A stretch of DNA of 64,000 nucleotides from an uncultured Oscillospiraceae bacterium (GTDB taxonomy: Bacteria > Bacillota > Clostridia > Oscillospirales > Oscillospiraceae). The position numbers and the translations under genes are program-made. The stretch spans positions 7,804 through 71,803 of the forward strand of contig CAJTVO010000002.1 in assembly GCA_910579485.1 (NCBI GenBank), given 5' to 3'. The notes beneath the pieces are model-generated. The model was not told where the DNA came from. It did not search any database and worked only from the letters and a program-made list of their open reading frames with translations. Below, piece by piece: positions 20,352 to 23,634 of this stretch. Each line of letters begins with the position of its first letter. The first letter of the stretch is position 1.

Positions 20352-21326
20352 TTAAAATTCAATCCTTCTTTGATAGTTCTCCCACCCTGTCCGCAGGGTA
20401 TCACTAATCTCTTTCCGCAGCCAGTCCGGCTCCAAGATCTGACAGAGCGATACATATTGCAGCGCCCAAAATTTCAGCCCGGCGGCTCCGGTAAACACTG
20501 CCGCGTCAAATGTCCCGTCTCCATTGTCCCGAAGCCGGGTTTCCATGCCGAAGCGGTCCAGCACATCGCTGAGCAAATCACTCTCACAGCGTAACACCGC
20601 ATGGACGGCCTCGCCAGGAAAGGGGTACACCCGCTCCCGGACATACCGCGCCAGGTCCAGCCCGGCTGGCAGCGGTTCGGCAGGCTGCTCCTCCAGCAGG
20701 ACCGGGGACTGAATCCGATCCACCCGGTAGTGGCTGATGTCCTCCGCTCCCTGATACCGGCAAATCAGGTAGTAGTTCCCGTTGGCGAAGCACAGGCCGT
20801 AGGGCGATACCCGGTAAGGCCGCTCCCGGCGGGGATGGAGGCGCTTGTCCATACCGTACTCCATGTACTGAAACTCCACCTGACAGCGGCGCGAAACAGC
20901 CTCCTCCAGCACCTCCACGGACAGGAAGGCTTCATGATTCATGCCACGCCAGGGCACTCCGGCGATGAGAGGACGGCACTGCGCCCGCTGCCAGCGGCTC
21001 AGGCCCCGCTGAAGCCTGTCCAACAGCTGTTCACACTGGCGCTGTGAGATGCCCGGAAAGGCGGACACCGCGTCCGACAGCAACTGGACCTCGGATGGCT
21101 CCAGAGAACGGGACAGCAGCCGGTAGCCCTCGCCATCGTCCTGGTACTCCGGAATGTGACAGCCGACAGCCCGCAGCTTATCCAGGGCGGTATACACAGC
21201 CCGACGGTCGTATCGCAGACCATACTCCGTCCGCAGCAGGCGCAGCAGCTCCCCCATGGCCAGGGCGTGGTCTCCGTCGGTGTGTTCAGAAAGAATCTGA
21301 TAGACGCGGAAGGGCAAAAGATTCAC
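20352..21326 (-). CDS. WYL-domain transcriptional regulator (wHTH + WYL + C-terminal extension; CapW/BrxR/DriD-like architecture)
   Basis: N-terminal wHTH (LAMGELLRLLRTEYGLRYDRRAVYTALDKLRAVG). Central WYL-type core (RPYRVSPYGLCFANGNYYLICRY...ISHYRVDRI). 324 aa. GTG start overlapping the upstream stop (GTGA). Confidence 0.8.
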   Translation of the reverse strand: MNLLPFRVYQILSEHTDGDHALAMGELLRLLRTEYGLRYDRRAVYTALDKLRAVGCHIPEYQDDGEGYRLLSRSLEPSEVQLLSDAVSAFPGISQRQCEQLLDRLQRGLSRWQRAQCRPLIAGVPWRGMNHEAFLSVEVLEEAVSRRCQVEFQYMEYGMDKRLHPRRERPYRVSPYGLCFANGNYYLICRYQGAEDISHYRVDRIQSPVLLEEQPAEPLPAGLDLARYVRERVYPFPGEAVHAVLRCESDLLSDVLDRFGMETRLRDNGDGTFDAAVFTGAAGLKFWALQYVSLCQILEPDWLRKEISDTLRTGWENYQRRIEF

Positions 21327-21925
21327 AGCAAAATCCTTTCGTCCAGCCGCACAGAGATATTGTCCGCATAGGTCAGGGAAAGCCGGTGGGCTACATCATT
21401 CAAACCTCCTCCCCGGTTGCTTCCGGTTCGGCCGATCCAGCTGGGGTCAAGGTTGAGACGCAGGACCATGTTGTCCTGCAGCTGCCGTTCTACCTGTTCC
21501 ACCGTGCGGCGGGCCGCTTCTGAGGACTGTTCCACCGGGTAGCCATCCTTCAGCAGAGTGACCTTGCCAAACAGAATAGTCATATGGTCAAAGAGCCGCT
21601 CCACGGCTTGACCCCACTCCCTGCACGCCGCATCTCTTCCGGGTACGTAAAAGTCATAGGTGGAGTAGAAATCATCAGCCACGAAACAACGCAGGTCGGT
21701 CAGCCGGTGGGGATTCTTGACCATCCAGTATTTCCTTTCCCGGTAATTTTCCAGGTGATTCCGGTTCCTGCCTGCCATATCGTCGGAAATACCGATATAA
21801 AAGGGCCGGTCCGCATCCTGATAGACGTGGAAATATACGCCCAGGCCACTGGCCTCAGATGGAATATTGTTTCCTGCCAGTAACTCCCGTGCGGAGATGC
21901 TGTGAAAGACGTGAAGATCGACCAT
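21323..21925 (-). CDS. GIY-YIG nuclease-domain-like protein
   Basis: GVYFHVYQDADRPFYIGIS matches GIY-x11-YIG and is followed by R-x-R-x-H (AGRNRNH). A later E (VEQVERQL) and N (RLNLD) are candidates for the conserved Glu/Asn. The start was chosen at the second ATG (21925) after a GGAGGG RBS (track start 21940). Confidence 0.6.
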   Translation of the reverse strand: MVDLHVFHSISARELLAGNNIPSEASGLGVYFHVYQDADRPFYIGISDDMAGRNRNHLENYRERKYWMVKNPHRLTDLRCFVADDFYSTYDFYVPGRDAACREWGQAVERLFDHMTILFGKVTLLKDGYPVEQSSEAARRTVEQVERQLQDNMVLRLNLDPSWIGRTGSNRGGGLNDVAHRLSLTYADNISVRLDERILL

Positions 21926-21954
21926 GAAAGTGCCCTCCATTTTCTTGATAGCCT

Positions 21955-21983
21955 ATTCTACCATTTCCCAGCACAAATAGCAA
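21955..21983 (-). promoter_or_regulatory. sigma-A-type promoter for the GIY-YIG/WYL operon
   Basis: Minus strand reads TTGCTA - 17 nt - TAGAAT, about 30 nt upstream of the chosen start. Confidence 0.55.
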
Positions 21984-21984
21984 T

Positions 21985-22018
21985 CACCCCCCTGTACTTG
22001 TTTTGGTACAGGGGAGTG
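21985..22018. promoter_or_regulatory. Palindrome in the divergent intergenic region (candidate WYL-regulator operator)
   Basis: CACCCCCCTGTAC - 8 nt - GTACAGGGGAGTG, with 12 of 13 arm positions complementary. It abuts the -35 of the minus-strand promoter. It also overlaps the likely promoter spacer of the plus-strand operon. Confidence 0.5.
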
Positions 22019-22075
22019 TGATATGCTTGGAACAGACCAGCGGAAAACCAGATCAGAAATGTGGAGGAGTTTTTT

Positions 22076-22984
22076 ATGCGGCGTATTATGATTGACAACC
22101 TGACCCTGCTGGTGGGCGGCACCCGGCTGGAACGGGAACAGCAAATGGACAAATTCCAAAACGCCAGTGATTTTATGACAGCGATCATACAGAATATCCG
22201 GGAAGATGACAACGGCGGGTTCCTGACACGTCTGCGCACGGTTCCGTGTTTCGCGCTGTCGGAAGTTCAGAGCATCGGCGGAAAACCGGCAACGGAACAG
22301 CTGCTGTCCGACCTGCTGATGGACCGCCAGCGGCGGGGACTTCTCACCGTATTGGGAATGGAGTATATTCCCCCGTTTATCAAACAGCTGTATCCCATTC
22401 CCTGCGGCCCGATTCCGGCAAAGATCTGCCTGCTGGAACGTGATTTGCGAAAATGCAAATTTCTGGAGTTGTATTTTGATTCCGCTCCGGAGGTGGAAAT
22501 CATCTGTGATGATTTCCGGCACTTCATGGAGACCCACCAGGTGCAGTGTGTGGTATCTCCTGCCAATGCCTTCGGACTGATGGACGGCGGGTATGATCTG
22601 GCGATCACCGAGTGGTTTGGGGACCAGCTGCAAAAGCGGGTACAGCAGTATATCATCCATCATTTTTACGGTGAACAGCCGGTGGGGACCAGCTTTTTGA
22701 TCGACGCGGGAAAGGACGGCCAGTCTCTGATCCATACGCCCTCCATGCGCACACCCCAGCGGATTTTAGACCCGCAGGTCATCTATCAATGTATGCGAAC
22801 AACCCTGATGTGTGCGGCGGAGTACAGTATCGAAAGCATCGTTATCCCAATGTTTGGAGGTTTGACGGGCGGAGTGCGCCCCCAACTGGTTGCGGATATG
22901 ATGTGGAGGGCTTACCGGCAGCTGAAAAATCCACCGGAAAGGATCGATTGGAATGATGTGGAAGAAATTAAAATCATTCTTTAG
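22076..22984 (+). CDS. macro-domain protein with an unassigned ~125-aa N-terminal region
   Basis: GGAGGAG RBS 6 nt before the ATG at 22076. The C-terminal ~175 aa carry macro-domain motifs VVSPANAFGLMDGGYDLAI, GEQPVGTSFLI, LIHTPSMRTP and PMFGGLTGG. Confidence 0.8.
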   Translation: MRRIMIDNLTLLVGGTRLEREQQMDKFQNASDFMTAIIQNIREDDNGGFLTRLRTVPCFALSEVQSIGGKPATEQLLSDLLMDRQRRGLLTVLGMEYIPPFIKQLYPIPCGPIPAKICLLERDLRKCKFLELYFDSAPEVEIICDDFRHFMETHQVQCVVSPANAFGLMDGGYDLAITEWFGDQLQKRVQQYIIHHFYGEQPVGTSFLIDAGKDGQSLIHTPSMRTPQRILDPQVIYQCMRTTLMCAAEYSIESIVIPMFGGLTGGVRPQLVADMMWRAYRQLKNPPERIDWNDVEEIKIIL

Positions 22985-23444
22985 AAAACCAGCGCGCAAA
23001 CGGGTCCTCAACAAAGAGGGCTTTGAGCGGTTAGAGCAAAAGTTCATCGAGAATACGGGCCTTATTAACGTAGACTATGCTGATGTGCAGATCCTTCGAA
23101 AAGACGAGGCAGCTTTTCTCTGGGAAAGCCCCCCTTGCACATCAATGGATGAAATGATAAGCCTGTCCCCGCTGGCAGCGGCGGAAATGGCTCCAGAGCG
23201 GGGACGGAAGATCGTGTCCGTATTGCTATATTGCAATTTGCCCTGGGAGGCGGATATTGAAAGCCTGGATGCAATATGCAGCGCAATTCAGAGAACGATT
23301 CAAGAAGATGCGGATATTGTATTCGGCTGTGAATTTGGCGAGGAATGCAGTTTCCTGCTGGCCACTTCTGAGGGAAAATGTGGTTCAAAACCTTTTGATG
23401 CCGCACATGATCGATCTGTCATGGATGAACGCTATGAAGACTGA
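22953..23444 (+). CDS. FtsZ C-terminal-domain-only protein (no GTPase domain)
   Basis: [22 protein letters not shown] and [48 protein letters not shown] align by eye to the FtsZ T7-loop/H8 and C-terminal domain ([14 protein letters not shown]..., GVLMNITGG..L.L.EV.EAA.I......DVNMIFG). 163 aa. It overlaps the macro gene by 32 nt. Confidence 0.65.
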   Translation: [163 protein letters not shown]

Positions 23445-23634
23445 AAGCATTTTTGAGAAAACTCCCGGTTTGAACATGCCAAGCCTGATCCTGCTGGCCG
23501 CTCGGCTTGGGATGGGCATCCGGCAGGAACAAAGTTAAAATAAGAAAAGAGCCCCCGCCGCCCCGCAGGAGCGGTACGGAACATTCTTTGACGAAGGAAG
23601 AAGAAAAAAGCGGTGCGGTCCGCAGGGCGTCAAA

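Follow-up and report, generated by a model that had tools for sequence, protein, structure and literature searches.

What is the role of a gene that encodes only the C-terminal subdomain of the cell division protein FtsZ? The question is raised by a small gene, whose product is called FtsZC here, in the genome of an uncultured Oscillospiraceae bacterium (assembly GCA_910579485.1, contig CAJTVO010000002.1). The whole stretch of 64,000 nucleotides that was analysed is referred to as the window. FtsZC, a protein of 163 amino acids (aa), was confirmed by sequence profiles and a structure model as a stand-alone homologue of the FtsZ_C domain that probably descended from the C-terminal subdomain of FtsZ. 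A preliminary description of the locus had proposed this relation from alignments made by eye, and the product and translation given there were identical to the open reading frame (ORF).

FtsZC and its relation to FtsZ

The homology of FtsZC emerged with sequences of the Protein Data Bank (PDB), family profiles and structure, and not with direct scans of Pfam, PHROG and PADLOC, in which the protein had no match. The top match of a phmmer search against all PDB sequences was FtsZ 9v7v (E=0.14), with residues 31-136 of the query aligned to FtsZ residues 222-328. Profile A1 was made from 25 close homologues, and profile A2 from 28 diverse homologues, including proteins fused to FtsK-gamma. FtsZ accounted for 15 of the 20 PDB matches of A1, all 15 in one common register (best E=0.016), and 40 of the 44 matches of A2 were FtsZ or FtsK, the latter through the fusion members (best E=1.3e-3). 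The HMMER family profile aligned at positions 32-153 to residues 200-323 of Bacillus subtilis FtsZ (BsFtsZ) 2vam. Pfam FtsZ_C (PF12327) was matched by 5 of the 28 family members, with a best E of 9.1e-6. TIGR00065 (ftsZ) matched the window protein with E=5e-3, residues 31-129 corresponding to model positions 205-308. Family cut-offs were not reached by the window protein, which scored 16.2 bits against the 295 of TIGR00065 and was not reported by PF12327. With hhalign, A2 was aligned to a Bacillaceae FtsZ alignment of low diversity, and window residues 33-139 were placed on BsFtsZ 202-314 (E=7.6e-5, probability 62%). HMMER and hhalign reproduced the register of both alignments made by eye. The BsFtsZ sequence used for them was correct, and its 318 aa showed 100% identity in a comparison with P0077, annotated as 'cell division protein FtsZ [Bacillus subtilis]'. 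The identity of FtsZC to FtsZ was low, at 15-20%.

The AlphaFold2 model of FtsZC, built on A1, had a mean predicted local distance difference test score (pLDDT) of 78.6 and a predicted template modelling score of 0.72. Its helices (H) and strands (E) were H21-32, a loop, H42-46, E53-58, H65-78, E85-96, H102-113, E121-128 and E132-142, which gives the order H7 (C-terminal half)-T7-H8-S7-H9-S8-H10-S9-S10. A Foldseek search of the PDB with this model returned dozens of FtsZ chains (E ~2e-5 to 1e-4) with template modelling (TM) scores of 0.51-0.57, normalised on 163 residues, and root mean square deviations (rmsd) of mostly ~3 Å across ~120 columns. For the chains at E ~2e-5, the TM scores were 0.55-0.57 and the rmsd was ~3.1 Å. 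The chains came from Staphylococcus aureus, B. subtilis, Mycobacterium tuberculosis, Klebsiella, Methanocaldococcus jannaschii and an Odinarchaeon. The E-value list was topped by ThiL/PurM-like chains, which were set aside because their rmsd was ~9 Å and their TM scores were only 0.36-0.41. The C-terminal subdomain fold of FtsZ (H8, S7, H9, S8, H10, S9, S10) was recovered by AlphaFold2, Foldseek, hhalign and the PF12327 matches, in agreement with the preliminary description.

FtsZC covers the C-terminal half of H7, the T7 loop, H8 to S10 and a short tail, and starts at the equivalent of approximately BsFtsZ residue 185. The absence of the guanosine triphosphate (GTP)-binding domain, noted in the preliminary description, was borne out. 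For this N-terminal domain, which in FtsZ bears the tubulin signature GGGTG[ST]G, PF00091 gave no match at E up to 10, and a tblastn search of the window with Escherichia coli FtsZ found residues 198-298 only, with the GTPase part neither in nor upstream of the FtsZC gene. The C-terminal linker and peptide had also been described as missing, and by inspection no peptide motif of the D-I-P-x-F-L type was seen in the 22 aa that follow S10. Most homologues end no more than ~10 aa beyond S10. The gene was also considered as a remnant or frameshifted ftsZ, and this was ruled out by the lack of anything FtsZ-like upstream, by the macro-domain gene in that position and by the architecture, which is kept in >50 clusters. 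That the C-terminal tail of the window protein is an artefact of fusion by deletion was refuted by locus L123, which carries an insertion; the tail is native.

The preliminary description held that the T7 synergy loop N-x-D-x-x-D is kept, and the window protein has N39, D41 and D44 opposite BsFtsZ N208, D210 and D213. Conservation was counted over 37 non-redundant family members, <80% identical to each other. Within the T7-like motif, G36 was kept in 25, I38 in 28, N39 in 13, L/V40 in 32, D41 in 29 and D44 in 32 members, and the family form is G-x-I-x-[LV]-D-x-x-D-[LVI]-x-x-L. Further on, the counts were 37 for L48, 35 for G51, 34 for F55, 34 for W57, 33 for E58 and 35 for S59, followed by 35 for A75, 34 for M79, 36 for P81, 34 for G84, 34 for F134 and 34 for E140. 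The basic N-terminal extension pointed out earlier was confirmed and was found conserved in some of the homologues. Residues 1-9 had pLDDT below 50, and the helical hydrophobic moment of the segment was the maximum for FtsZC, 0.78-0.86 compared with 0.53 +/- 0.125 for shuffled sequences. The segment is possibly a membrane-binding helix. It presumably resembles the N-terminal membrane-targeting helix of SepF, which we take as a lead only.

The FtsZC family comprised ~50 clusters in searches of sets of 5.8 billion and 1.8 billion proteins, and the homologues came from Pseudoflavonifractor, Oscillibacter and metagenome-assembled genomes (MAGs) of Oscillospiraceae or Clostridia that stem from gut samples. 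A locus search based on A1 found 8 genome loci, all from Oscillospiraceae or Clostridia. The family was confined to Oscillospiraceae chromosomes and gut metagenomes, and no relatives were found on viral or plasmid records in IMG/VR, INPHARED (tblastn), PLSDB (tblastn) or PHROGs. Its members have no model of their own in Pfam, NCBIfam, PHROG or PADLOC and are annotated as "hypothetical protein". The literature searched contained no account of a bacterial protein family made of the FtsZ C-terminal domain alone. The window protein belongs to a cluster of 186 member sequences that are 98% identical and lie on many contigs. In three family members, P0047, P0053 and P0059, the C-terminus is an FtsK-gamma winged helix (E=4.8e-13, 7e-10 and 2.2e-27, respectively).

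FtsZC is under purifying selection. At synonymous divergence (dS) of ~0.5-0.9, the ratio of non-synonymous to synonymous divergence (dN/dS) was 0.26-0.68 for FtsZC, 0.10-0.24 for the neighbouring regulator gene and 0.09-0.18 for the phosphatase gene that accompanies FtsZC in other loci. Since the ratio is below 1, FtsZC is regarded as functional and constrained. Between locus types the neighbours were 80-96% identical and FtsZC only 35-58%, and the comparison suggests that selection on FtsZC is clearly weaker than on its neighbours, or partly diversifying.

Table 1. Features of the FtsZC locus, with positions in the window.
Feature	Position	Strand	Description
Winged helix-turn-helix (wHTH)-WYL-WCX transcription regulator, 324 aa	20352..21326	-	Pfam WYL 3.6e-13, WCX 9.2e-6; PADLOC WYL 4e-28
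205-aa protein with weak GIY-YIG-like motif	21323..21940	-	Pfam GIY-YIG E=0.016, below threshold; PADLOC PDC-S14 E=1.8e-3
Promoter-like site of the divergent GIY-YIG-like/WYL operon	21955..21983	-	abuts the palindrome; TTGCTA-17-TAGAAT with upstream TG (consensus scan)
Operator-like perfect palindrome CCCCTGTAC-TTGTTTTG-GTACAGGGG (arms and N8 spacer)	21989..22014		between the divergent operons; invariant block
Extended -10-like element TGaTATGCT	22019..22027	+	5 nucleotides (nt) downstream of the palindrome; read from the sequence
Macro-domain protein, 302 aa	22076..22984	+	first gene of the operon; Pfam Macro PF01661 E=6e-13; NCBIfam and PHROG matches
N-terminal domain of the macro protein, residues 1-150	22076-22530	+	no family match
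FtsZC, stand-alone FtsZ C-terminal-subdomain protein, 163 aa	22953..23444	+	intact ORF, ATG start
Cationic amphipathic N-terminal segment of FtsZC	22956..22991	+	in part of the family only; helical hydrophobic moment
T7-loop-like motif G36-L-I-N39-V-D41-Y-A-D44-V of FtsZC	23058..23087	+	aligned to BsFtsZ G205-L-I-N208-L-D210-F-A-D213-V
DnaB-C-terminal-domain-like gene remnant (MKTESIFEKTPGLNMPSLILLAARLGMG...)	23434..23538	+	other frame, overlaps the FtsZC stop; ends just after the start of Walker A

Operator, regulator and operon types

The palindrome was the sole invariant block among 8 aligned intergenic regions of different locus types, the remainder of which diverged. It occurred once in the 64-kb window compared with 0.03 occurrences expected by chance, and one copy per locus was present in 20 other loci. 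The FtsZC operon was located just downstream of it in every locus type. The -10-like register reads TGcTAACAT in other locus types, and the pattern TGnTAnnnT was present 5 nt downstream in all types, while the -35 position of the promoter on the FtsZC side would fall inside the palindrome spacer (TTGTTT). We infer this extended -10/-35 promoter of the FtsZC operon from the sequence only.

The WYL regulator was divergent from the FtsZC operon in every locus long enough to judge and was 82-92% identical across all FtsZC loci. Its search against PDB sequences gave no match at 1e-3, and hence no solved WYL relative by sequence. Proteins of the wHTH-WYL-WCX type bind palindromes in bidirectional promoters and sense single-stranded DNA (ssDNA) (PMC11662680), and all studied regulators of the class, activators as well as repressors, respond to ssDNA (PMC11662680, PMC9186387). 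By comparison with these, the most likely ligand of the palindrome is the WYL regulator encoded on its other side. Because the studied WYL regulators respond to ssDNA, expression of FtsZC would be expected after DNA damage, prophage induction or infection.

Five arrangements with FtsZC downstream of the operator were distinguished. In the window type (window, L010-L015, L025), the regulator side carries the WYL and GIY-YIG-like genes, and the operon consists of macro and FtsZC only. In the L016 type, a 220-aa protein, WYL and the GIY-YIG-like protein are encoded opposite macro, FtsZC, phosphatase and a DnaB_C-only ATPase. The L001 type has a PD-(D/E)xK gene and WYL on the regulator side and an operon of FtsZC (142 aa), phosphatase, a PolC-like fragment (776 aa) and an SNF2/ResIII helicase (~1200 aa). 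The operon of the L021 type contains FtsZC and phosphatase only, and that of the L020 type an FtsZC-FtsK-gamma fusion and phosphatase. In L094, the operator directly precedes the phosphatase gene and FtsZC is absent. The modules of the operon vary independently, with FtsZC without phosphatase in the window and phosphatase without FtsZC in L094. This independent variation of DNA-related genes suggests that they are independent effectors under one stress promoter.

The phosphatase is a 237-aa protein of the NinI/lambda-phosphatase or ApaH-like kind with intact DxHG and GDxxDRG motifs, and there is a 4-nt overlap between its gene and that of FtsZC in the L001 type. The 776-aa PolC-like protein (within L001:6426-12429) matched only the central part of PolC models, and its relatives in phage-like faecal contigs were only 23-29% identical and thus uninformative. 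The DnaB C-terminal-domain-only ATPase of L016 (4790-5536; 248 aa) has an intact Walker A motif. In the fuller operons, the truncated FtsZ is thus accompanied by relatives of essential replication proteins that also lack domains, and these may be either active enzymes of a mobile element or paralogues that interfere. The WYL gene was always paired with 1-2 small accessory genes without a curated family (window, L016, L021, L020), namely the GIY-YIG-like gene of 193-205 aa, a gene of 215-224 aa with an N-terminal ILILGESHHG motif, or the PD-(D/E)xK gene. The 205-aa GIY-YIG-like protein was kept in L010-L017, L025 and L123, in an operon with the regulator.

In the window, the end of the macro gene overlaps the start of FtsZC by 32 nt, and the start codon of the macro gene was fixed by alignment across loci. 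Up to Walker A, the DnaB_C remnant (23434-23517) codes for 28 residues, 64% of them identical to those at the start of the DnaB_C protein of L016. From this remnant, the window operon is regarded as a decayed operon of the L016 type in which the phosphatase gene was lost and the DnaB_C gene truncated, with macro and FtsZC kept. In L123, a locus nearly identical to that of the window, the FtsZC gene is interrupted by 163 nt of inserted DNA (L123:4880-5045, at the point that corresponds to window 23366/23367), and the product is cut to 150 aa. With its inverted ends GAGCCTGTTTA...TAAACAGGCTC and the duplicated TCTGAG, the insertion resembles a miniature inverted-repeat transposable element (MITE).

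L026 (16763-17114) and L099 also encode the N-terminal domain of the macro protein, there with no macro domain attached; its single-sequence AlphaFold model, with a pLDDT of 39, was not used. In L099 (2403-4070, minus strand), downstream of the same operator type, this domain, with the motif MRRIxIxxLTLLxGGTRLEREEQMG, is combined in one protein with an FtsK-gamma-like segment and leucine-rich repeats of the BspA type. The FtsK-gamma module is thus shuffled among the first genes of these operons. In one Oscillibacter MAG (L026:16763-19406), a second partial module is located 6 kb downstream of the first. This module encodes the N-terminal domain of the macro protein, a phosphatase of 85% identity and a PolC-like fragment, and there was no second operator.

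A metagenome scan for the palindrome arms also revealed many loci with a WYL regulator ~40% identical to that of the window, followed by a PD-(D/E)xK gene. These sister loci (L113:2006-6399, L068:2298-5966 and at least ~15 more metagenome loci) share the arms CCCTGTAC/GTACAGGG, have a different spacer (RGACAWWY), and precede genes for a 169-aa coiled-coil protein and a reverse transcriptase (RT). They may constitute an unclassified WYL-controlled RT module, and they indicate that the cargo of the regulator clade is interchangeable, as it is for WYL regulators associated with defence. The GC content of the islets that contain FtsZC was ~50%, compared with ~63% in the flanks. In the window, positions 21400-23600 had a GC content of ~49-55%, compared with ~62-67% in the flanking ABC-transporter and ligA/response-regulator genes. 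The low-GC islet is consistent with horizontal acquisition.

Proposed mechanism and rival explanations

Our preferred explanation is that FtsZC is an ssDNA- or stress-induced antagonist of FtsZ that occupies the nucleotide face of FtsZ; we hold it tentatively, at somewhat less than an even chance. An ssDNA signal would act on the WYL regulator at the palindrome, and the FtsZC operon would be transcribed. The T7/H10 face of FtsZC would then dock onto the GTP-bearing face of FtsZ, which is exposed on every free monomer and at one filament end. FtsZ filaments grow at the C-terminal-face (plus) end (PMC9897490; 10.1101/2020.02.25.965095), and a monomer covered by FtsZC would be unable to join this end. 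Since FtsZC cannot be extended, it would either sequester monomers or cap filaments, and the GTPase of the bound FtsZ might be fired via D41 and D44 of FtsZC. Z-ring assembly and division would be delayed while the co-induced genes act; these are the macro-domain protein and, in fuller loci, the phosphatase, the PolC-like polymerase and the helicase.

Several lines of evidence led to this proposal. FtsZC has retained the C-terminal face of FtsZ with its catalytic Asp residues mostly kept, and the simplest use of such a face would be to bind the complementary nucleotide face. Being the lower longitudinal face of an FtsZ subunit is the single feature that sets this fold apart from other small alpha/beta domains. 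DNA damage is known to lead to the induction of division inhibitors by WYL activators, as in DriD-DidA (PMC9186387, PMC4211646) and DdaA-AciT (PMC13010146), and growth of E. coli is inhibited, with a dominant-negative effect, by pieces of its own FtsZ that come from the longitudinal interfaces (PMC9245647). The FtsK-gamma fusions link the family to a second module of the divisome and of chromosome segregation. Together with the WYL promoter, they make a role related to FtsZ or division plausible.

A number of observations weigh against this proposal. The T7 Asn N39 was retained in only 13 of the 37 family members. The strongest conservation, from L48 on, was in the family-specific motifs WESP, EMAPxPGR and FLLATSE, and L48, G51, W57-E58-S59, M79-P81-G84, F134 and E140 are not known interface residues of FtsZ. 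At equal dS, FtsZC had 3-4 times the dN of its WYL and phosphatase neighbours. Such a rate would be surprising in a protein that binds the nucleotide face of FtsZ, which is very conserved, and a role as a decoy or in an arms race would account for it no less well than a cap. Among the matches listed in the scan for the palindrome arms, the FtsZC-type spacer was only found beside FtsZC-type modules, a hint that the regulator acts locally and not globally. The islets were located at varying chromosomal sites, some beside fragments of transposases or serine recombinases, and had a low GC content. Taken with the sister clade that drives an RT, such mobile islets look more like defence or mobile cargo than like a core damage response.

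FtsZC could instead be a decoy or guard, an explanation we consider unlikely, in which it would mimic the FtsZ surface targeted by inhibitors (T7, H10, the S8-H10 loop) and soak up FtsZ inhibitors of phages or other elements, thereby protecting division, or would report them to the co-encoded enzymes within a defence island under WYL control. This is exactly the face of FtsZ that MciZ, MinC and MipZ target (PMC9897490), and a defence protein that senses a phage FtsZ inhibitor in complex with FtsZ has been described (PMC13423816). The palindrome in a bidirectional promoter also matches the CapW/BrxR layout (PMC11662680). The raised dN/dS of FtsZC compared with the 0.09-0.24 of its neighbours, the low-GC islets with variable insertion sites, the nuclease-like PD-(D/E)xK and GIY-YIG-like genes next to the regulator, and the RT module under the sister WYL regulators, whose operator arms are identical, all point in the same direction. 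A decoy, however, needs no catalytic T7 Asp residues, and D41 and D44 were kept in 29 and 32 of the 37 members; the modules vary independently, unlike those of a tightly co-dependent defence system. PADLOC-DB 2.0 gave no match for FtsZC and weak matches for the macro protein (DarG, E=0.0098) and the 205-aa protein (PDC-S14), and only the WYL match was strong. We know of no cognate phage inhibitor for these hosts.

The fold could also have been re-purposed, FtsZC serving as an adaptor or regulatory subunit for a protein encoded nearby instead of FtsZ (the translationally coupled NinI/ApaH-like phosphatase, the macro protein, or the PolC-like or DnaB-C-like replication protein), with a T7-like loop that serves another nucleotide site or none. 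The start/stop overlaps with the phosphatase gene in L001 and the macro gene in the window would suit such a partnership, as would the low identity to FtsZ and the strongest family motifs, which are not FtsZ-like. The fold belongs to a broad structural class with ThiL/PurM-type chains among the Foldseek matches, though at an rmsd of ~9 Å. The partnership is not obligate, however, as the phosphatase occurs without FtsZC in L094, and FtsZC has stayed intact without the phosphatase in the window lineage with its 186 member sequences. The FtsK-gamma fusions speak for a connection with division and the chromosome more than for a subunit of an enzyme, and we regard this explanation, too, as improbable.

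We see a very small chance that FtsZC poisons phage or plasmid filaments of the TubZ or PhuZ type and not host FtsZ. Such filaments use the same insertion of T7 into the nucleotide pocket, and an arms race would agree with the fast evolution of FtsZC. In sequence as well as fold, however, the best matches were all cellular FtsZ and not TubZ or PhuZ, IMG/VR, INPHARED and PLSDB contained no relative, and Foldseek against BFVD gave no match below 1e-3 and poor TM scores, so that the phage-tubulin idea of the preliminary description found no support. We know of no evidence that tubulin-encoding phages infect these hosts. It is also very unlikely that the window gene is a functionless leftover of a degraded mobile or defence operon. 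The loss of the phosphatase gene, the truncated DnaB-C-like gene and the MITE-like insertion within FtsZC of L123 would be expected of decaying cargo, but the ORF is intact and shared at 98% identity across its cluster, the operator, promoter elements and regulator are intact, and dN/dS is below 1 throughout the family.

The proposed FtsZ antagonism can be extended to a more specific form, which we consider doubtful as a whole. FtsZC would be a self-derived 'half-subunit' antagonist, induced by ssDNA at damage or infection, that plugs the GTP face of FtsZ via a working T7 loop and possibly activates its GTPase. It would act on the face opposite to that targeted by SulA, MciZ, MinC and MipZ, and some relatives would be tethered to the chromosome by FtsK-gamma. 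As a DnaB C-terminal-domain-only protein and a truncated PolC-like protein are also encoded there, the operon would perhaps be a cassette of truncated paralogues of essential division and replication proteins that pauses both processes.

Comparison with known systems and significance

FtsZC resembles the C-terminal subdomain of FtsZ (PF12327; BsFtsZ ~200-315) in its fold, the order of its elements, the position of T7 (GLIN-x-D-x-x-D) and the S9 motif D-x-x-[IV]-[IV]-F-G. Unlike FtsZ, it has no GTPase domain, no first half of H7, no linker and no C-terminal peptide, falls below the Pfam gathering threshold, carries the motifs WESP, EMAPxPGR and FLLATSE of its own, and is encoded in a WYL-controlled accessory operon and not in the dcw cluster. 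The FtsZ inhibitors SulA, MciZ, MinC and MipZ would be similar to FtsZC, as proposed, in that they block FtsZ polymerisation at the longitudinal interface, by sequestration or capping, under stress or developmental control (PMC9897490). However, their folds are unrelated to that of FtsZC, they show no homology to it, and they bind the C-terminal/T7/H10 (plus-end) face (PMC9897490). FtsZC would bind the opposite, nucleotide-bearing face because it is itself the C-terminal/T7/H10 face.

The clearest precedent of an FtsZ relative that antagonises FtsZ is ARC3, an inhibitor of Z-rings in plant chloroplasts. ARC3 consists of an FtsZ-like region and a MORN domain. Unlike FtsZC, it is eukaryotic, much larger and a member of the Min system, and the two are likened by concept. 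Synthetic dominant-negative FtsZ fragments cover longitudinal contacts and inhibit growth of E. coli, presumably by competing for monomer contacts (PMC9245647). These are laboratory peptides from the host gene, whereas FtsZC is a natural, diverged and separately regulated whole subdomain.

On the side of regulation, the target of DidA, a small membrane protein, lies among the late components of the divisome and is not FtsZ. DriD-DidA of Caulobacter and DdaA-AciT of Acinetobacter share with the FtsZC locus a wHTH-WYL-WCX regulator and, as proposed here, a small division inhibitor and an ssDNA signal (PMC9186387, PMC4211646, PMC13010146). However, DidA and AciT have no sequence relation to FtsZC, and the regulator of the present locus looks local, with one operator seen. 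CapW/BrxR systems are alike in their divergent genes, the palindrome in a bidirectional promoter and the variable cargo, and they are de-repressed by ssDNA (PMC11662680). The cargo found here (FtsZ C-terminal domain, phosphatase, PolC-like protein, helicase, macro protein), in contrast, is not a recognised defence system.

Antagonists of FtsZ are central to checkpoint control, phage takeover and antibiotic design. The well-studied ones among the protein antagonists are all known to attack its C-terminal/T7 face. To our knowledge, the damage and division checkpoints of Oscillospiraceae are essentially unstudied. Should FtsZC be a decoy, it would represent a case, in bacteria, of a cytoskeletal protein with an "integrated decoy". 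If it is the proposed antagonist, a natural protein that is itself the T7 face would show a different route to stopping the Z ring and would provide a scaffold with which to probe or drug the nucleotide face. The locus would then also be a third example, from Gram-positive gut bacteria, of WYL/ssDNA control over cell division.

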